This document shows positions 164 through 49,946 of a stretch of DNA of 64,000 nucleotides, piece by piece. The stretch spans positions 1,664 through 65,663 of the forward strand of contig QHUM01000046.1 of the NCBI GenBank assembly GCA_003222135.1, read 5' to 3'. The translations under genes were made by a program, and so were the position numbers. Origin of the DNA: Gemmatimonadota bacterium. Lineage in GTDB: Bacteria; Gemmatimonadota; Gemmatimonadetes; Gemmatimonadales; GWC2-71-9. Within the stretch, counting starts at the first letter, position 1; each line of letters opens with the position of its first letter. The notes under the pieces were generated by a model. That model worked only from the letters and a program-made list of their open reading frames with translations. It searched no databases and had not been told where the DNA came from.

Positions 164-176
164 CCCGCACTAACCC

Positions 177-1046
177 CTAACCCCTAGCCCCTCCCACCTT
201 GCGCTTGGCGGTGGGCGCCGCTTTCGCCCCCTTGCCTTCGACTCGCTTCGCGGGCTTCCGCTCGCCCGTAGCCCCTTTGCCCTTGAGGCTCGCCTTCAAC
301 GCCTCCATCAGGTCGATGATCTGCGTCTTGGGCGCCTCGGTCGGCTCCTCCGTGATCTCCTTGCCCTCCACCTTCCGCTGAATCTGCTCGAGCACCCGCT
401 TGCGGACGTTGTCCTCGTACTTGTCGGGCTGGAAGGCTTGGGACGCCGCCTGCTCGACCAGCTGCACGGCGAGCTGTAGCTCCGGCTTCTTCACCTCGAC
501 CTTGGGAATCGGCACCTCTGCGATCGAGCGGATCTCGTTCGCGTAGCGCAGCTGCTCCATGACGAGACCGGTTTCCTCGGGACGCACGGCGATGAGGTAC
601 TGCTTGCCGCGCGCCGCGTACTGTCCTACCGCTACGCGCCCCGTCTGCTTCAACGCCTCCGCCAGCAGACGATAGGCCCGGTCGCCGCCCTTGTCGGGTC
701 CCAGGAAATACGACTTCTCGACGTATTTCCTGTCCACCTGGTCCGCCGGCACGAACTCGGTGATCTCGACCGTGTTGGTGGACTTCTCTTCGAGGGACTT
801 CAGCTCCTCCGGTGTGAAGATCACGTACTGGCCCTTCGTGAACTCGTAGCCCTTCACCATCTCATCCTTCTCAACCTTGTCGCCGTCCTTGGAGCAGACG
901 TACTGCTGCTTCAGGCGAGCGCCATCCTTTTTGTGCAGCCAGTTGAAGCTAATGGCGGCTGAGGATTCGCCGGTCGAGAACAACTTGATCGGCACGGAAA
1001 CGAGGCCGAAGGACAGGGTGGCGGAGCCAAGCGGGTGTGCGCTCAT
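177..1046 (-). CDS. ku: Ku protein (non-homologous end joining)
   Basis: 289-aa ORF. The N-terminus SATLSFGLVSVPIKLF and the core KGYEFTKGQYV are typical of bacterial Ku. It has a basic Lys/Ala-rich C-terminal tail and sits head-to-head with ligD. Confidence 0.95.
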   Translation of the reverse strand: MSAHPLGSATLSFGLVSVPIKLFSTGESSAAISFNWLHKKDGARLKQQYVCSKDGDKVEKDEMVKGYEFTKGQYVIFTPEELKSLEEKSTNTVEITEFVPADQVDRKYVEKSYFLGPDKGGDRAYRLLAEALKQTGRVAVGQYAARGKQYLIAVRPEETGLVMEQLRYANEIRSIAEVPIPKVEVKKPELQLAVQLVEQAASQAFQPDKYEDNVRKRVLEQIQRKVEGKEITEEPTEAPKTQIIDLMEALKASLKGKGATGERKPAKRVEGKGAKAAPTAKRKVGGARG

Positions 1047-1065: not shown

Positions 1066-3618
1066 ATGCCGGCAAAATGGAAGCCCGGGTCCGATCCGCT
1101 CAGTGCCTATCGAGCCAAGCGGTCGTTGGACCGCACGCCGGAGCCCGGCGCTCGTCCCGCGGCCGCAGCCCCCTCCGCCGGCGGCCTGTTCGTGGTCCAC
1201 ATGCATGCCGCCCGGCGGCTGCACTGGGACCTGCGCCTCGAGATGGACGGCGTGCTCCGGTCCTGGGCAGTCCCGAAGGGGCCCTCGCCCGACCGTGCCG
1301 ACAAGCGGCTCGCGGTCCATGTGGAGGACCACCCGCTCGAGTACGGCGACTTCGAGGGGATCATCCCCGACGGCAACTATGGCGCGGGCGCCGTGATCGT
1401 GTGGGACCGCGGTCGCTGGGTACCGCTCGAAGACCCGCACGAGGGAATGAAGAAGGGGAAGCTGTTGTTCGAGCTGCACGGCTACAAGCTCAAGGGCAAA
1501 TGGACCCTCGTGAAGCTCAAGAAAGGCGAAAAAGAGTGGCTGCTGATCAAGGAGAGAGACGGCTACGCCGCGGCGGACGGCGGGGGCGCCCTGCCGCCCG
1601 AGTCGGTGCTGTCCGGGCTCACGGTCGACGAGCTGAAGGCGGGGAAAGACCGGGCGGCGCCCGTGGTGAAGGAGCTCGCGCGTCTCAAGGCGCCCAAGCG
1701 CGCCGTCACGCTCGAGCAAGCCGAGCCGATGCTCGCCGAGACGCGCGAGCAGCCGTTCTCGAAACCCGGATGGCTGTTCGAGCTCAAGCTCGACGGGTAC
1801 CGCGTCCGCGGCGGCCGCGAGGGAGGAGAGGCGCGGCTCGTCACGCGTAACGGACACGACATCGCGCCCGCGTTCCCCGAGATCGCCCGCGCCCTGACGG
1901 CCCTCCCGTACGAGGGGTTCATCTTCGACGGCGAGCTGTGCGTCCCGGACGAGGCAGGCCGGCCGAGCTTCCAGCGCCTCCAGAACCGCGCCAAAGTGTC
2001 CCGGGCGCTCGAGGTGCGGCGTGCGGCGGTTGAGACCCCTGCCGTTCTGTATGTGTTCGATCTGCTCGCGTTCGAAGGCTACGACGTTCGGCCGTTGCCG
2101 CTCGAGCAGCGCAAGGCCCTGCTCGAGCAGCTCGTGCCGCGCGTGGGTCCGATCAAGTATCTCTCGCACTTCGAGAAAGACGGCGAGGCGCTGTACGAGC
2201 AGATCGTGAAAATGGGGCTCGAGGGGATCGTCGCCAAAAAGGCGGACTCTGCCTACCGCGCCGGCCGGTCGCCCAACTGGCTCAAGATCCGCGCCGACCG
2301 GGTCGACGACTTCGTCGTCGTAGGCTTCACGCGGCCCAAAGGCTCGCGCTCGGGGTTCGGCGCGCTCGACCTGGGCGCGTACGAGAACGGGAAGCTGGTG
2401 TATGCCGGACGAGTCGGCAGCGGGTTCACCGCCGCGGAGCTCAAACAAGTGAGCGCCGTGCTGGAGCGCGGCATTCGCCCGACGCCTGCCTTCACTGGTC
2501 CCGTCCCCCAGGACCCCGGGCATACCTGGGTCGAGCCCACGCTGGTGGTGGACGTCAGATACAAAGAATGGACCGACGAGGGGCTGTTGCGGCAGCCGGT
2601 GTTCGTCCGGTTCCGCGACGATAAGAAGCCCGAGGAGTGTGTGAAACCGGGAGGCGGGAGGCGGGAGCCGGGAGACAAAGATCCCGCCGCGGCGCCTCCC
2701 GCCTCCCGCCTCCCGGCTCCCGATGAACGGAGGGAGATACGGTTCTCTAATCTCGACAAAGTCTTCTGGCCGGAAGAGGGCTACACCAAGGGCGACTTGA
2801 TCGAGTACTACCGGGCCGTATCCCTGTGGATGCTGCCCTATCTCGCCGATCGGCCCCTGGTGCTCACGCGCTTCCCCGACGGCATCACCGGGAAGTCCTT
2901 TTTCCAGAAGGACGCCCCGGAGTATGCCCAGGCGTTCGTGCGAACGGTCACGATCTGGAGCGAGGACTCGCAGCGCGAGCTTGACTATTTCGTGTGCGAC
3001 AACGAGTCCTCGCTCCTCTACATCGTCAACATGGCGGCGATCCTGCTCCATGTCTGGTCGTCCCGCGTGTCGACCCTGGAGACGCCTGACTGGTGCATCT
3101 TGGACCTCGATCCGAAGGAGGCCCCGTTTACGGACGTGGTCACCGTGGCGAAGGCAGTCCGGGCGTTGTGCGACGAGATCGGCCTGCCGACGGGCATCAA
3201 GACGAGCGGCTCGACCGGCCTTCACGTGCTGATCCCGTTGGGTCGCCAGGTCACCTACGAACAATCCCGCACGCTGGGCGGACTCCTGGCACGGGTCATC
3301 GCGGCCGAGCTGCCGGAAATCGCCACAGTAACGCGGCAGGTCCAAAAGCGGGACGGCAAGGTGTATCTCGATTACGTGCAAAACGGTCACGGGCGCCTGC
3401 TCGTCGCGCCCTTCAGCGCGCGGCCCTTGCCCGGCGCGCCGGTGTCGATGCCGCTCGCGTGGAGCGAGGTGACGCCCAAGCTCGATATCCGGAAGTTCAC
3501 GATCGCCAACGCGCCGGCCCGCATGAAGAAGCTGAACGACGACCCACTCCGTGCGGTGCTCGAGGAGAAGCCCGATCTTGTGAGCGCGCTCGAGCGGCTC
3601 CATGCCCGTCTCGGCTGA
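1066..3618 (+). CDS. ligD: ATP-dependent DNA ligase D (phosphoesterase-ligase-polymerase order)
   Basis: 850 aa. It has an N-terminal 3'-phosphoesterase motif (HMHAARRLHWDLRLE) and a ligase adenylation motif (ELKLDGYR). The C-terminal primase-polymerase domain shows NLDKVFWPEEGYTKGDLIEYY and SGSTGLHV. Confidence 0.95.
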   Translation: MPAKWKPGSDPLSAYRAKRSLDRTPEPGARPAAAAPSAGGLFVVHMHAARRLHWDLRLEMDGVLRSWAVPKGPSPDRADKRLAVHVEDHPLEYGDFEGIIPDGNYGAGAVIVWDRGRWVPLEDPHEGMKKGKLLFELHGYKLKGKWTLVKLKKGEKEWLLIKERDGYAAADGGGALPPESVLSGLTVDELKAGKDRAAPVVKELARLKAPKRAVTLEQAEPMLAETREQPFSKPGWLFELKLDGYRVRGGREGGEARLVTRNGHDIAPAFPEIARALTALPYEGFIFDGELCVPDEAGRPSFQRLQNRAKVSRALEVRRAAVETPAVLYVFDLLAFEGYDVRPLPLEQRKALLEQLVPRVGPIKYLSHFEKDGEALYEQIVKMGLEGIVAKKADSAYRAGRSPNWLKIRADRVDDFVVVGFTRPKGSRSGFGALDLGAYENGKLVYAGRVGSGFTAAELKQVSAVLERGIRPTPAFTGPVPQDPGHTWVEPTLVVDVRYKEWTDEGLLRQPVFVRFRDDKKPEECVKPGGGRREPGDKDPAAAPPASRLPAPDERREIRFSNLDKVFWPEEGYTKGDLIEYYRAVSLWMLPYLADRPLVLTRFPDGITGKSFFQKDAPEYAQAFVRTVTIWSEDSQRELDYFVCDNESSLLYIVNMAAILLHVWSSRVSTLETPDWCILDLDPKEAPFTDVVTVAKAVRALCDEIGLPTGIKTSGSTGLHVLIPLGRQVTYEQSRTLGGLLARVIAAELPEIATVTRQVQKRDGKVYLDYVQNGHGRLLVAPFSARPLPGAPVSMPLAWSEVTPKLDIRKFTIANAPARMKKLNDDPLRAVLEEKPDLVSALERLHARLG
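2648..2723. repeat. Heptad-built palindrome (4x CSGGGAG, 21-nt spacer, 4x CTCCCGS) in frame in the ligD Lig-Pol linker
   Basis: Sequence is ccgggag gcgggag gcgggag ccgggag - acaaagatcccgccgcggcgc - ctcccgc ctcccgc ctcccgg ctcccg. About 25 of 28 arm positions are complementary. It is translated as PGGGRREPGDKDPAAAPPASRLPAP. Confidence 0.85.
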
Positions 3619-46730: not shown

Positions 46731-47281
46731 GAACCCTCGGCGTTGTGCTGCTAGCGTGCAGCGCTGCCTTCGGGAGCCGGGGGGGAGAGGTACCCATCGC
46801 CCCTCCGTTCGAGGTCATCGTTCTCCCCGCGGGGCTCCGCGGCATGATGAGCGCCGTCTGGATCCAAAACAACCGTCACTGGGACGAGCTCGCGGGCCAG
46901 AACACCCTCACGCAGCTGCTGGGGACGGGGAAGCCGACCCAGCGCGAGTACTTGGGATGCCTCGCCGGCGAGGTCGCGAACGACACGCTCTGGGTGCGCG
47001 AGCTCCTCGCGGCCGCTGAGCTCAAGCAGCTGCAGTTCGCGGTGGCGGGCAATTGCGACCAGGTCGACCACTTGGTGGGGACGTGGCACACGCACCCGTA
47101 CCGGGCCGGCCCGGACGGCGGTGCCTTGAAAGAACGCGGTCTGTCGGCGCTGGACCTCGCCACCTTCGCGGCCGCCCGCGATCTCATCAGCGTCGTCATG
47201 TGGGACATGGATTCGATCGACGTGGCGGCGAAGGCGCCCGACGGGTCGGTCCGCCATCCGGTCGCGCTCAGCCCGCGCTAG
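46727..47281 (+). CDS. lipoprotein with JAB/MPN-like metalloprotease motif
   Basis: GTGA overlap with the PEBP stop. Lipobox VVLLAC. Motif GEV...HLVGTWHTHP-(16 aa)-SALD resembles E..HxH..SxxD of JAMM, but with a longer His-Ser spacer. Confidence 0.45.
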   Translation: MRTLGVVLLACSAAFGSRGGEVPIAPPFEVIVLPAGLRGMMSAVWIQNNRHWDELAGQNTLTQLLGTGKPTQREYLGCLAGEVANDTLWVRELLAAAELKQLQFAVAGNCDQVDHLVGTWHTHPYRAGPDGGALKERGLSALDLATFAAARDLISVVMWDMDSIDVAAKAPDGSVRHPVALSPR

Positions 47282-48786
47282 CGCGCGGCGCCTACGTCCG
47301 CGTCGAAAACTCCCGTCAGAATCCGGCCATGGCGCTTGACCTGCACCCACAGGCGGTAGCGCCCCGGCGTGGGAAACGCATAGGGGAAGGACACTGCGTC
47401 TGGGGGTACCTCTCCCTTCTCCCATCTCCCCATAGCCATCGCCGCAAGTCGCTTGCCGAGCTCCCCGCGGATCGTGTCTCCCGGCTGGCGCAGCATGAAC
47501 GTTTGCTGCGCGGCGACCGAGATCGTCCCGGCCGGATGGAGGTGCACGAATACGGCGCCGTCGTCGCGCGTGATCATCGCGTGCGCCGCCATGCCCATGT
47601 AGGGCTCGAGCGCCGCCGGCTTGCTGTCCGGTGTCCGGACCAGGAACGTGAGCGGAGCGTCTCGATCGACGACGATCGGGGCATCCCCACGGTTCCAGGT
47701 CATGGTCGAGCCGTCCGCTAGTAGGGAAACGGCTCCCGTCTCCCGTCTCCCGCCTCCCGACCACCAGGCGTCGTCTGTGCCGCCGGGAGTCGGGAGACGG
47801 GAGACGACGGCGGGCGGCAGATCGAGCCTCGCAACCAGCGTCTGTGCGAACCCGCTCTCATGCACGATGTCTGCGTAGAGGCGATACGTCCCGGGCGGAA
47901 GCGGGGGCAGCAAGGTCTCGAACGTGGTCGAGTCGACGGGAAGGGGATGGAGGTGGGCGAACGCGTCGAGCCCGCCGTCTCGGACGAGAAACAAGTGCAT
48001 CAGGTGGCCGTGGTCCGGGATGAGCGGCGTCCACTGGCGCTGCCGGTTTGCCCAGGAGCTGTCGTCGATGGCGAAGCGCAGCACGCTTCCGGTGGCGGTG
48101 GCCCGCACCGTGGCAGCGGCGTGGAGCGGCTGGTACAACCCGCTGCGGTACGCGGCGTCGACCGCGTTCCACCACGCCCGGCCGCCGAGCAGCGCGAGAG
48201 CGAGCACCAGGGCCCCCACGAAGATCGCGATCCGCGAGCGGAGCGTGCGACGGCGGTCGGGCTCGGCGCCGGGCTCGAGCCCGCTCTCTCGCACGGCGGC
48301 ACCGACGATCGTGAGCGCTCCCACGCACAGGAATGCCCCGAGCGCGAGCAGCGCCGCACCGAGCGGCTTCTCGAGCGCGAGTCGCCGGGTCGCCACGGCC
48401 ATGACGGGAACGAGCGTCGTGCCGGTTCCCGCCTCTCCCTCGACGGTCACCCGCACGCTGTAAGCGCCGGCGCTCATGAGCCACAGGGCTGCGCTGTAAA
48501 GCGTCGAGTCGCCGGGGACGGGGGCCGCGACGTCGGGGGGTGGCGGGGCCGCGGTCCGCGGGTCCCAGAAGACGGGTAGCACCAGCACGCGCCGGATCAC
48601 GTGCGGGGTGAGCAAGCGGACGGTGATCTGGGCGAGTCCGGGCACCACTCCGGGATTGCGTACGATCACGCGCACCGGGTACGCGCCCGCGGCGCCTTCG
48701 AAATATGTGTCCGGGCTCCCCACGTGCGCCGAGGCGACGAGCGCGATCCCCGCGAGCGCACCCAGCCTGAGCCCGCGGCCCGTCAT
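47278..48786 (-). CDS. hypothetical periplasmic/membrane protein with duplicated H-L-H-P domains
   Basis: 502 aa from ATG 48786 (ATGA overlap with the upstream gene). Signal ending ASA|HVGSP, a central TM pair, and two similar domains (AHLHPLP..PPGTYRLYADI and VHLHPAG..TPGRYRLWVQV). Confidence 0.55.
   Translation of the reverse strand: MTGRGLRLGALAGIALVASAHVGSPDTYFEGAAGAYPVRVIVRNPGVVPGLAQITVRLLTPHVIRRVLVLPVFWDPRTAAPPPPDVAAPVPGDSTLYSAALWLMSAGAYSVRVTVEGEAGTGTTLVPVMAVATRRLALEKPLGAALLALGAFLCVGALTIVGAAVRESGLEPGAEPDRRRTLRSRIAIFVGALVLALALLGGRAWWNAVDAAYRSGLYQPLHAAATVRATATGSVLRFAIDDSSWANRQRQWTPLIPDHGHLMHLFLVRDGGLDAFAHLHPLPVDSTTFETLLPPLPPGTYRLYADIVHESGFAQTLVARLDLPPAVVSRLPTPGGTDDAWWSGGGRRETGAVSLLADGSTMTWNRGDAPIVVDRDAPLTFLVRTPDSKPAALEPYMGMAAHAMITRDDGAVFVHLHPAGTISVAAQQTFMLRQPGDTIRGELGKRLAAMAMGRWEKGEVPPDAVSFPYAFPTPGRYRLWVQVKRHGRILTGVFDADVGAAR
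47733..47806. repeat. second heptad-built palindrome (4x CTCCCGN, 23-nt spacer, 3-4x CGGGAGN), in frame in CDS 47278..48786
   Basis: Sequence is ctcccgt ctcccgt ctcccgc ctcccga - ccaccaggcgtcgtctgtgccgc - cgggagt cgggaga cgggaga cg. On the minus strand it is translated as SRLPTPGGTDDAWWSGGGRRETG. Confidence 0.85.
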
Positions 48787-49946
48787 CGCCGCAGCCTGGC
48801 CATCCAGTTCCCCCACCCGAGGCCGAGCCGCGCGGAGAGCACGGCGAGCAACGCGGCGATCACGAACGCGCGCGGCGTCACCGGATCGGTCTCGGCACGC
48901 CAGAAGTGGTAGCGCCAGGGCCCGGGGCGGCTCGAGTAGTCCCAATGGTCCACGCCGAACAGATAGTTGTGGCTGTGCGGACTGAGCAGAAACTCGCTGA
49001 AGAACCATTGGGTCACGAAGAACACCGCGAGGAAGGCGAGCCCAACCAGGCCGGACAGCCGCCAGTCGCGACCCGGGCCGACGCGCTGCATCAAGAGGTC
49101 GATCGCCAACGCCGGGACCACGAGCAGCAAGGGGAACGGCGGCGGCACCATGTGTGTCAAGGGATTGAAGACCGGCGCGAGCTTCGGGGTCGCGGGCGCG
49201 AGCTGCAGGATCCAGATCATTGCGAGCGAGAAGCCCATGTAGACGAGGGCAGCGGTCGTCGCCGGCCAGCGGAGTCGGACGGCGCGCCCGGCCGCGACGA
49301 GCAGGATGGGCATGGCGCCGGCCGCCACTTGGTAGTAGACCGCGCTATGAGCCACGTTGGGAAAGCCGATCTGCTCGATGCCGATGGTCGCGGCGTTCTG
49401 CAGCAGAATGCCGATCACGTAGGCGCCGAGCAGGCCATATAGCCGTGAGGCCTGCTGCGCCGGACTGCGGTTCTGCAGCGAGAGCACGAGGAAGAGACAG
49501 CCGAGCTGAATCGCCCAGATCCCGAGCGCGAGAATCACGTGCGGAGGCGACAGGACTTTCACGTCGAGGCCGTACGCGTTGTGCCACCAGTTGTCGAACG
49601 GGGCCGAGGTGATCATCGCGAAGGCGCCCCAGATGCACACCCAGGCTCCCAGCGGGCCGCGGAAGCCCCAGAACCCGACCGCAGCGGCCCGCTCTTCCGC
49701 CGTGCCCGCGAAGCTCGTCCGGAGCACGAGCCAGCCGCACCCCAGGCCGGCGAGCACGCCGCCCAGGTAGATGGCTGCGTGCGCGGGGGTCCAAAAGGTG
49801 TCGCGACCGATCGAGCGGTGCCAGGAGATGTCCCAGATGATGCCGACTTTGGCGCTCGTCGCCGCGACGAGCGTGGCGGCGACGTACCAGGGCACGTGCG
49901 CCGCGAGCGGCGGGGCGCGCGTGGTGGGCGTGGCCGCCGCCGTCAT
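48783..49946 (-). CDS. polytopic membrane protein of unknown function with internally repeated W-H...P-x-H motif
   Basis: 387 aa with about 10 TM segments. WDISWHRSIGRDTFWTPAHAAIYLG is repeated as FDNWWHNAYGLDVKVLSPPHVILALG. Confidence 0.6.
   Translation of the reverse strand: MTAAATPTTRAPPLAAHVPWYVAATLVAATSAKVGIIWDISWHRSIGRDTFWTPAHAAIYLGGVLAGLGCGWLVLRTSFAGTAEERAAAVGFWGFRGPLGAWVCIWGAFAMITSAPFDNWWHNAYGLDVKVLSPPHVILALGIWAIQLGCLFLVLSLQNRSPAQQASRLYGLLGAYVIGILLQNAATIGIEQIGFPNVAHSAVYYQVAAGAMPILLVAAGRAVRLRWPATTAALVYMGFSLAMIWILQLAPATPKLAPVFNPLTHMVPPPFPLLLVVPALAIDLLMQRVGPGRDWRLSGLVGLAFLAVFFVTQWFFSEFLLSPHSHNYLFGVDHWDYSSRPGPWRYHFWRAETDPVTPRAFVIAALLAVLSARLGLGWGNWMARLRR

Follow-up and report, generated by a model that had tools for sequence, protein, structure and literature searches.

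The palindrome at positions 47733-47806 of a 64-kb stretch of a Gemmatimonadota genome (contig QHUM01000046.1; hereafter the window, meaning all 64,000 nucleotides analysed) is probably one site of a class of G-tract heptanucleotide microsatellites, (GGGNNNN)n, that extends across the lineage, typically occurs in Gemmatimonadales as closely spaced inverted pairs and has a DNA-level origin in slippage and template switching. We give this reading a probability of about 0.65. The palindrome is neither a mobile element nor a protein motif. Judging from their sequences, (GGGNNNN)n pairs in Gemmatimonadales can form putative hairpins or cruciforms of 20-30 bp. The palindrome lies in frame inside a conserved gene on the minus strand, and a comparable hairpin lies in ligD on the plus strand. 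The features at these two sites are as follows.

47278..48786, minus strand: host coding sequence (CDS), an open reading frame (ORF) for an uncharacterised conserved protein of ~500 aa with a signal peptide, two long helices and beta-rich domains.
47733..47760, minus strand: G-arm, (CGGGAGN)x4 on the sense strand with four GGG tracts, encoding S343-A352 (SGGGRRETGA).
47761..47783, minus strand: hairpin loop, encoding G335-W342 (GGTDDAWW).
47784..47806, minus strand: C-arm, (CTCCCGN)x3 on the sense strand, encoding V327-P334 (VVSRLPTP).
1066..3618, plus strand: ligD (PE-Lig-Pol, 850 aa), host of the G-first hairpin.
2648..2723, plus strand: ligD heptad hairpin, convergent, aa 528-553; G-arm (CGGGAGN)x4 at 2648-2675, 20-nt loop, C-arm (CTCCCGN)x4 at 2696-2723.

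A first-pass annotation, made from the letters of the window, had described a heptad palindrome in frame within CDS 47278..48786 on the minus strand, and we confirmed its sequence, spacer and pairing. The plus strand reads CTCCCGT CTCCCGT CTCCCGC CTCCCGA, i.e., (CTCCCGN)x4, at 47733-47760. A 23-nt spacer (47761-47783) separates this C-rich array from the G-rich CGGGAGT CGGGAGA CGGGAGA, i.e., (CGGGAGN)x3, at 47784-47804, which is followed by CG. The minus-strand ORF continues in frame through the palindrome as ...VVSRLPTPGGTDDAWWSGGGRRETGA..., and the ligD ORF passes through its own hairpin as ...PGGGRREPGDKDPAAAPPASRLPAPD.... An inverted-repeat search returned 23-nt arms with 96% complementarity (47737-47759 / 47784-47806) and, in ligD, 27-nt arms with 93% complementarity (2648-2674 / 2696-2722). 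Among the 25 longest inverted repeats in the 64 kb, only these two combine arms of 23 nt or more with complementarity of 90% or more. The three-heptad pattern CGGGAGNCGGGAGNCGGGAG matched the window 7 times against 0.05 expected (0/100 shuffles), and all 7 matches fall in one or the other of these sites. Tandem Repeats Finder reported a period of 7 with 3.3-4.3 copies in all four arms. The 23-nt arm pairing at 47733-47806 is far beyond chance.

Folding of the palindrome gave a minimum free energy (MFE) of -58.8 kcal/mol for the plus strand and -63.8 kcal/mol for the minus strand (z of -4.7 and -5.9), and both strands folded far better than shuffles (z from -4.7 to -6.9). At the level of nucleic acid, the outcome is a very stable predicted stem in DNA and in both possible transcripts. 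At the level of protein, the predicted outcome is a low-complexity loop of Gly/Arg/Glu and Ser/Arg/Leu/Pro. Three of the four window arms have four units, that is, exactly the four G-tracts that are the minimum for a G-quadruplex; a four-unit arm carries the motif G3N4G3N4G3N4G3, as read from the sequence letters alone.

Several conventional assignments were considered for these stems. An intrinsic (rho-independent) terminator was ruled out, as neither site has the signature of a GC-rich stem-loop with a T-run and the ORFs run through: a terminator scan found no terminator-like sites at 47500-48000 or 2450-2950, and the promoter scan made alongside it found nothing. A curated RNA family was likewise ruled out by a search of the whole window against Rfam 15, which produced no match at the gathering threshold.

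The resemblance between the two window sites follows largely from the arithmetic of the heptad. The G strand, CGG GAG NCG GGA GNC GGG AGN, is translated as R-E-x-G-x-G-(R/S), and the C strand, CTC CCG NCT CCC GNC TCC CGN, as L-P-x-P-x-S-R. Since 7 = 1 mod 3, a one-base change of frame is equivalent to moving along the array by one unit, and all frames therefore give the same cyclic 7-aa peptide. The peptide identity of the two sites thus arises because a 7-nt period is read in triplets. The first-pass annotation had noted the same peptide words at both sites in swapped order. The words are indeed present, but they are automatic and point to no shared peptide module. The swapped order is a genuine topological difference, with the G-arm first on both strands at the ligD site and the C-arm first on both strands at 47733-47806. 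However, the reverse complement of a G...C palindrome is G...C again, so the opposite order cannot be a flipped copy; the two sites are different arrangements rather than one unit flipped.

Nor is the palindrome a second copy of the ligD hairpin, as had been proposed. The two sites are not copies of each other, and the CGGGAG hexamer that they share is weak evidence of common origin because ~20% of random site pairs are as similar. Other parts of the earlier description hold: the spacers are unrelated (23 nt versus 20 nt in ligD), the shared unit is the arm and not a complete element, and both sites preserve the frame, being read through inside long ORFs. The CGGGAGN unit contains no stop codon in any of the six frames and three units make seven codons, hence the frame is kept and the repeats are tolerated inside genes. 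Their location also agrees with such tolerance, since intragenic sites are disordered loops or inter-domain linkers. Both window sites lie in predicted coil or in an inter-domain linker, as placed by an AlphaFold2 (AF2) model and by Pfam boundaries, respectively.

Homologues of the host protein provide a view of how its loop may have changed. We used the best 120 of 4988 homologues, about 500 aa long, and an alignment of 30 orthologues. Several homologues of the host protein and of LigD have source names that place them in Gemmatimonadales. Across the 30 orthologues, D338, D339 and A340 never vary and W341 is conserved in at least 90%, which places a DDAW motif inside the hairpin loop. In the AF2 model, which has only moderate confidence (mean predicted local distance difference test score, pLDDT, of 65.8), DDAWW lies in a short beta-strand (residues 340-343) and both arms are in coil, where pLDDT falls below 50 for residues 331-336 and 345-349. 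Because the loop encodes the invariant DDAW, it is ancestral host coding sequence flanked by the arms, and nothing contiguous was inserted.

The two sides of DDAW differ among the 120 homologues. After the motif, most encode a heptad-type peptide; before it, they have 'xAWRPSD' and not the C-arm peptide. Heptad peptides at the G-arm position include GNGKRETGN, corresponding to GGGAAAC units, and GTRDEGRGTG, which would match GGGACGA units. The DNA of homologue P0115 has ~9 GGGAAAC units and no C-arm partner. Among the 120 homologues, the C-arm is confined to the window and to P0001, P0002, P0008 and P0016, and in the orthologue DNA, of which five were read, both arms were confirmed in all four of these. 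P0003 is the closest relative without the C-arm. In the comparison with orthologues that the first-pass annotation had proposed, the C-arm is found in only a few, the G-array is already present in most, and there is no inserted segment. The orthologues do not show a palindrome decayed within ancestral sequence either. Instead, it is kept by co-variation of the arms, as ...CCCGTCTCCCG... is paired with ...GGGAGACGGGAGAC in the window and ...CCCGCCTCCC with GGGAGGCGGGAGAC in P0008.

The hairpin allele is a distinct haplotype of ~36 codons, 'LDLPxxPVSRLPxPGDxDDAWWSGxGRRExG', and relative to the common allele it is a replacement with a net gain of 2 codons rather than a contiguous insertion of ~75 nt. 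Loop residues ~320-356 exist in at least three discrete haplotypes that are patchy over the gene tree: the common 'AW(H/R)PSDxDDAWLxGNGxxETGN', the hairpin allele, and 'DDAWLxESRQPSAV...'. In a tree built with the loop masked, the hairpin haplotype occurs in three separate places beside sisters with the common allele and forms no single clade.

These patterns suggest an order of events. The sense-strand G-array 3' of DDAW is the older half of the hairpin, as the orthologues show, and the C-arm is probably the younger half, having replaced the common 'xAWRPSD'. The old G-array would have been copied as its reverse complement upstream of DDAW, and the new C-arm would have overwritten ~9 codons, converting 'xAWRPSD' to 'VSRLPxPGD' with 2 codons gained on balance and leaving the unusual C-first hairpin. 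Because the hairpin haplotype is patchy on the tree and sisters differ over the whole loop, the data suggest that the loop cassette has been exchanged between lineages by homologous recombination, by which the whole haplotype could then have spread. We rejected de novo template switching in each lineage as the sole origin of the C-arm in favor of such exchange, as sisters differ over the whole ~36-codon loop. The pattern is compatible with a template switch (a reverse-complement copy, replacement of a stretch of similar length, and multi-base compensation), but the difference between sisters spans the whole loop.

The history of the loop bears directly on whether a miniature mobile palindromic element, such as a miniature inverted-repeat transposable element (MITE), a repetitive extragenic palindrome (REP) or a Rickettsia palindromic element (RPE), was inserted in frame into two unrelated genes. 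Such an element could account for two in-frame palindromes with the same CGGGAG hexamer in 64 kb, for the patchy loop haplotype on the host-gene tree, and for one metagenome-assembled genome (MAG) with two copies sharing an inner core between heptad arms (L054 and L093). We nevertheless consider it extremely improbable. There is no full-length consensus: the spacers of 23 and 20 nt are unrelated, one loop (47761-47783) is invariant host coding sequence for DDAW, and the arm order is opposite at the two sites. There is also no contiguous insertion with a target-site duplication, as the hairpin allele is a replacement and neither shared termini nor flanking direct repeats are visible around the two window sites. 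Moreover, the G-arm stands alone in most orthologues, and the heptad of LigD varies by lineage at a fixed position. The host-sequence loop, unrelated spacers, opposite arm order and pre-existing G-array largely refute the mobile-element explanation for the two window sites. A sequence-specific process that generates palindromes, which the first-pass annotation had offered as its alternative, fits better.

To describe the wider family, we took a census of 928 kb of Gemmatimonadales DNA, consisting of the window and loci L120-L205 from around ligD and the host gene. Outside the anchored ligD linkers, it contained 94 period-7 arrays versus 10 in shuffles, or ~9-fold, while periods 6, 8 and 9 gave only 28, 5 and 8 arrays. 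Along with the excess of the three-heptad pattern in the window, this means that composition alone does not explain the frequency of the repeats. Canonical units mostly start with GGG or GGGG. A strict regular expression missed most partner arms, and pairs were therefore identified by fuzzy search and folding. Paired sites were G-first in 49 cases and C-first in 6, with all 6 of the latter being the 47733-47806 site and its orthologues. The 49 G-first pairs, mostly LigD linkers, comprise 17 heptad types, and heptads in paired sites include CGGGAGG, GGGAAAC, GGGGAGA, GGGGAGC, CGGGATG, GGGGGAC, GGGGAGT, GGGCCTA and GGGGTTA.

In nearly every pair, one heptad is common to both arms, which evolve in concert. 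The heptad distance between arms averaged 0.41, as compared to 1.99 when arms were permuted among loci (minimum of 2000 permutations, 1.57). Between sites, the distance was 1.96 within a locus and 2.13 between loci, making heptad type specific to the site rather than the genome; the test for genome-specific heptads in the census, as expected of a trans-acting or genome-wide homogenizing process, was negative or weak. We propose that replication slippage grows and homogenizes each array, that template switching within the palindrome or conversion between its arms would create the inverted partner, and that the same switching or conversion could keep the arms complementary while the heptad drifts.

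The family extends beyond coding sequence. Copies in related genomes also occur at gene junctions, after stop codons and beside tRNA-Gln, and the other sites in the census flanks are mostly at gene junctions. Because of these copies the family is not specifically intragenic. The family of intragenic palindromic elements envisaged by the first-pass annotation is thus real and non-random as a family of heptad-arm palindromes, but many of its members lie outside genes. We also scanned a genome collection for three units of CGGGAGN, which identified at least 119 loci in many phyla and speaks to taxonomic spread rather than genome-wide frequency; the source genome was absent among the matches listed. 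Among those listed, there were 72 arrays of three units versus 33 of four. The four-unit preference associated with G-quadruplexes was reproduced neither among the listed matches to CGGGAGN nor in the LigD arms, where the modal number of G-tracts is 3, not 4.

The ligD hairpin could be followed through many orthologues. It lies within the Lig-Pol linker (aa 521-573), between the Pfam domains DNA_ligase_A_C (up to aa 520) and LigD_Prim-Pol (from aa 574). We sampled 80 metagenomic loci, providing 77 unique linkers (68 anchored) whose flanks have 60-94% identity to the query. Stems reach 12 bp or more in 76/77 unique linkers and 20 bp or more in 53/77, and the median stem in the 68 anchored linkers is 24 bp. 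A G-first heptad pair was found in 63/77 and a C-first pair in 0/77. Lineages carry different heptads at this one fixed position. Linkers vary in length from 96 to 141 nt, every one a multiple of 3, with Lig and Pol in one frame at 80/80 loci. Phase variation by 7-nt slippage was rejected, as Lig and Pol were out of frame at 0/80 loci.

The halves of a linker match each other specifically. Mean linker MFE was -56 kcal/mol versus -45 kcal/mol for chimeras joining the left and right halves of different linkers, i.e., ~11 kcal/mol worse. Column covariation in a MAFFT alignment of the linkers was 0.249, as compared to 0.120 in shuffles (0/500 as high) and 0.168 in the best slid control; the register of the window was imposed by hand, which biases this test toward structure, and the slide and shuffle controls were included for that reason. 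RNAalifold predicted no consensus structure from the same alignment. A symmetric comparison of sense and antisense folds found no sense-strand bias in the linkers, with antisense folding slightly better (mean MFE of -58.1 versus -56.2 kcal/mol) and having more G-U pairs (231 versus 151). The complementarity of the stem is thus symmetric between the strands at the DNA level. We dropped a count of G-U pairs versus A-C mismatches (75 versus 42) as a sign of selection on sense RNA, since the folding program counts G-U as a pair.

Protein-level selection offers another account, in which flexible, low-complexity linkers rich in G/R/E and S/P/L are favored and the DNA palindrome is incidental. All sites do fall in loops or linkers, the length of the LigD linker is roughly conserved, and linkers among 120 LigD protein homologues resemble paired heptad peptides, such as GEGRGERD...SPLSPLP, RDAGSEMRD...HPASRISHP and GRGTGDEGR...PPSLVPPP. 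We regard this account as very unlikely. The peptides differ wholly between lineages (GGGRREPG, GEGRGERD, RDAGSEMRD, GRGTGDEGR, GLGPRASG) and yet the halves remain complementary, and the same repeat class is also found outside genes. No protein reason ties a G/R/E peptide to an S/R/L/P peptide encoded by its reverse complement, and the co-variation of the arms contradicts it.

Three further heptad sites in the window illustrate turnover.

47409..47431, minus strand: site B, a G-arm-only array in the host gene of the 47733-47806 site; sense strand (GGGGAGA)x3, translated as 'GRWEKGEV'.
46771..46815, plus strand: site C, a collapsed heptad-hairpin remnant, CGGGAGCCGGGGGGGAGAGGTACC...GCCCCTCC, near the N-terminus of a small gene beside the PEBP gene.
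168..193, no strand assigned: (CCCCTAA)x3.7 array at a gene junction, with the ligD hairpin ~2.5 kb downstream.

Site B lies within a segment disordered in the AF2 model (420-461), and in many orthologues a full G...C heptad hairpin with ~17 extra residues ('GSGERGAVP...EPLPAPRSLS') occupies this place. At site C, full G...C hairpins occur in the same place in L121 (6416-6505) and L124 (3064-3192), and the loop and most of the C-arm are deleted in the window. Close relatives thus gain and lose hairpins. For the array at 168-193, the two flanks differ in the phase of third-position GC content (GC3), and the orthologous position carries GGGGGGA in L129 (7797-7819), GGGGTTA in L130 (7816-7848) and GGGGCTA in L132 (506-532). 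The window itself holds GGGAGSC, GGGAGAC, GGGGAGA and GGGGTTA side by side.

The main rival to slippage and template switching is a selected nucleic-acid structure, whereby the hairpin, or an alternation of hairpin and G-quadruplex, is a functional cis element in mRNA or DNA. It could serve as a target of RNase III, make translation or transcription pause between segments coding for domains, or act as a structure-dependent regulator. Selection would hold the arms complementary while their sequence drifts, in keeping with the near-universal stem in LigD linkers despite diverged flanks, compensatory turnover through 17 heptad types, covariation above both the shuffle and slide controls, and the exactly four G-tracts in three of four window arms. 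Against it stand the slightly better antisense folds, a modal G-tract number implying that G-quadruplex potential is not conserved, and the absence of a partner arm, and hence of a hairpin, in most host-gene orthologues. Site C was lost in the window without apparent harm, there is neither an Rfam match nor a terminator signature, and selection on the stem accounts for neither heptad periodicity nor the G-first bias. We judge a selected structure to be rather unlikely.

Four points weigh against the reading that we prefer, namely heptad microsatellites paired by slippage and template switching. Both processes are inferred from patterns. The persistence of the LigD hairpin at one position, with flanks 60-94% identical, is also expected from purifying selection on structure. 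Plain slippage and template switching do not predict the excess of G-first pairs and need an extra assumption to do so. Finally, the census was drawn from the surroundings of two genes and is biased toward them.

A more speculative proposal is that heptad hairpins are self-renewing structures with a specific maintenance mechanism and that at least the one in LigD is functional, which we consider doubtful. A G-quadruplex on the template G-arm might stall the polymerase once the C-arm has already been copied, and the nascent strand might then fold back and copy its own new G-arm, bypassing the replication block. If true, fold-back would explain the near-universal G-first order, the joint switching of heptads between arms, and the persistence of the Lig-Pol linker hairpin through 17 heptad types. 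In LigD, the conserved stem could additionally be a cis regulator of this enzyme of non-homologous end joining, for example as an RNase III or pause site.

Other observations concern the host gene and its relatives. A Pfam search matched no family to the host protein or to the 387-aa polytopic membrane protein encoded upstream. The host protein contains FAHLHP and VHLHP motifs. In related contigs, the host gene and the gene for the membrane protein (together 47278-49946 of the window) are kept as a pair, with a PEBP gene and a two-component system as neighbors.

Additional heptad arrays were observed in related DNA. Two intergenic heptad hairpins of MAG JBKOYV01 (L054 4365-4478 and L093 3869-3993) have a common inner core hairpin, gaaccctCGGGAGgcctctct...cccgagggttctc, between their arms, and may constitute a genuinely repeated composite element in that MAG. 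In L103 (3451-3680), a long array of (T/C)GGGAGA, followed downstream by a C-arm, starts a few bases past a tRNA-Gln gene (3451-3522). Period-7 arrays without G-tracts recur in LigD-flank loci with units of GGCTGAT/C, GACGCAC and GGACAAC, the last ~2.1 kb downstream of the linker. Examples are at L121 9525-9546, L124 10610-10633, L159 11266-11294, L166 6916-6948, L168 776-809 and L171 12514-12539, with further loci in L150, L179 and L192 and in L129, L138, L142 and L162. Hence, the heptad periodicity of this lineage extends to units that lack G-tracts.

These results remove a tempting misreading, as the window contains neither a new intragenic mobile element nor a shared peptide module. With them, Gemmatimonadales join Xanthomonas and cyanobacteria as carriers of the heptameric G-tract repeat class. 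Units free of stops in all six frames allow such repeats to lie in frame within the loops and linkers of proteins. A caution for annotation follows: gene callers read straight through heptad arrays, and the annotated N-terminus of the small gene at site C is doubtful for this reason. The part most worth following is the LigD linker, an unusually clean natural experiment with one orthologous site in 77 unique linkers and 17 heptad types across paired sites. This series could separate mutational maintenance of hairpins, by template switching, from selective maintenance.

Among known systems, REPs and bacterial interspersed mosaic elements (BIMEs) are short, GC-rich, dispersed palindromes, often in inverted pairs; they are extragenic and non-periodic, have a genome-wide consensus, and are linked to REP-associated tyrosine transposases (RAYTs). 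The heptad hairpins are likewise short, GC-rich, dispersed palindromes that often form inverted pairs. Unlike REPs and BIMEs, the window sites are intragenic and periodic with no consensus beyond the heptad; no search for a RAYT was made.

RPEs and other intragenic MITEs have been reviewed (PMC10969869). Both RPEs and the heptad hairpins place palindromic DNA in frame in unrelated protein-coding genes, adding a tolerated peptide segment. However, RPEs are contiguous units of ~150 bp with a family consensus that are inserted into genes, whereas the Gemmatimonadales hairpins share no consensus beyond the heptad. They further differ from RPEs and MITEs in that the loop is host sequence, arm order differs by site, and turnover takes place in situ among orthologues.

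Template-switch mutations are known to create and maintain hairpins (Monttinen and Loytynoja 2022, PNAS, PMC8794818). In these events, a reverse-complement copy of a neighboring sequence replaces a stretch of similar length, matching the proposed origin of the C-arm, and multi-base compensatory changes keep stems perfect, matching the co-variation of arms. Template switching is a mutational process rather than a family, here inferred, and alone it explains neither heptad periodicity nor the G-first bias.

Cyanobacterial short tandemly repeated repetitive (STRR) heptanucleotide repeats were reportedly described by Mazel et al. in 1990. Most of these tandem heptanucleotide arrays, which are scattered over the genome, are single, long and intergenic. 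We know of no conserved in-frame hairpins described for STRRs. The Gemmatimonadales repeats are similarly dispersed tandem heptads, and Moorena, Lyngbya and Calothrix are among the matches listed in the CGGGAGN scan. Few heptamer repeats are paired in Nostoc (PMC4692102).

The closest known class is the heptameric G-rich simple sequence repeats (SSRs) of Xanthomonas (GGGAATC) and Nostoc (GGGGA(C/T)T), which form quadruplexes (Rehm et al. 2015, PLoS One, PMC4692102). Each Xanthomonas genome has 70-75 convergent inverted pairs, and 7-11% of heptamer repeats are intragenic (PMC4692102). Related genomes differ in the length and sequence of a repeat but retain its type at a given locus (PMC4692102). 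Traits shared with this class include tandem arrays of a few 7-nt units with a G3-4 tract and variable positions, seen in all four window arms; lineage-specific enrichment, seen as period-7 over-representation in the 928 kb of Gemmatimonadales DNA; and frequent convergent pairs on opposite strands able to form stem-loops or cruciforms.

Other traits agree in part. The ligD site has the convergent, G-first arrangement, but the 47733-47806 site is C-first (divergent), which is not reported in Rehm et al. 2015 (PMC4692102). Instead of one dominant heptad per genome, several coexist in the window. Four units are present in three of the four window arms, but three-unit arrays outnumber four-unit arrays among the matches listed in the scan. 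The known class is mostly intergenic (~90%); our sample is biased to two genes, and its other flank sites are mostly at gene junctions. The taxon is also different, as are the units, which include GGGAGNC and many others; the window sites are in frame inside genes, and the LigD linker site has been kept across deep divergence. Overall, the Gemmatimonadales hairpins are best filed as a variant of this known heptameric repeat class.

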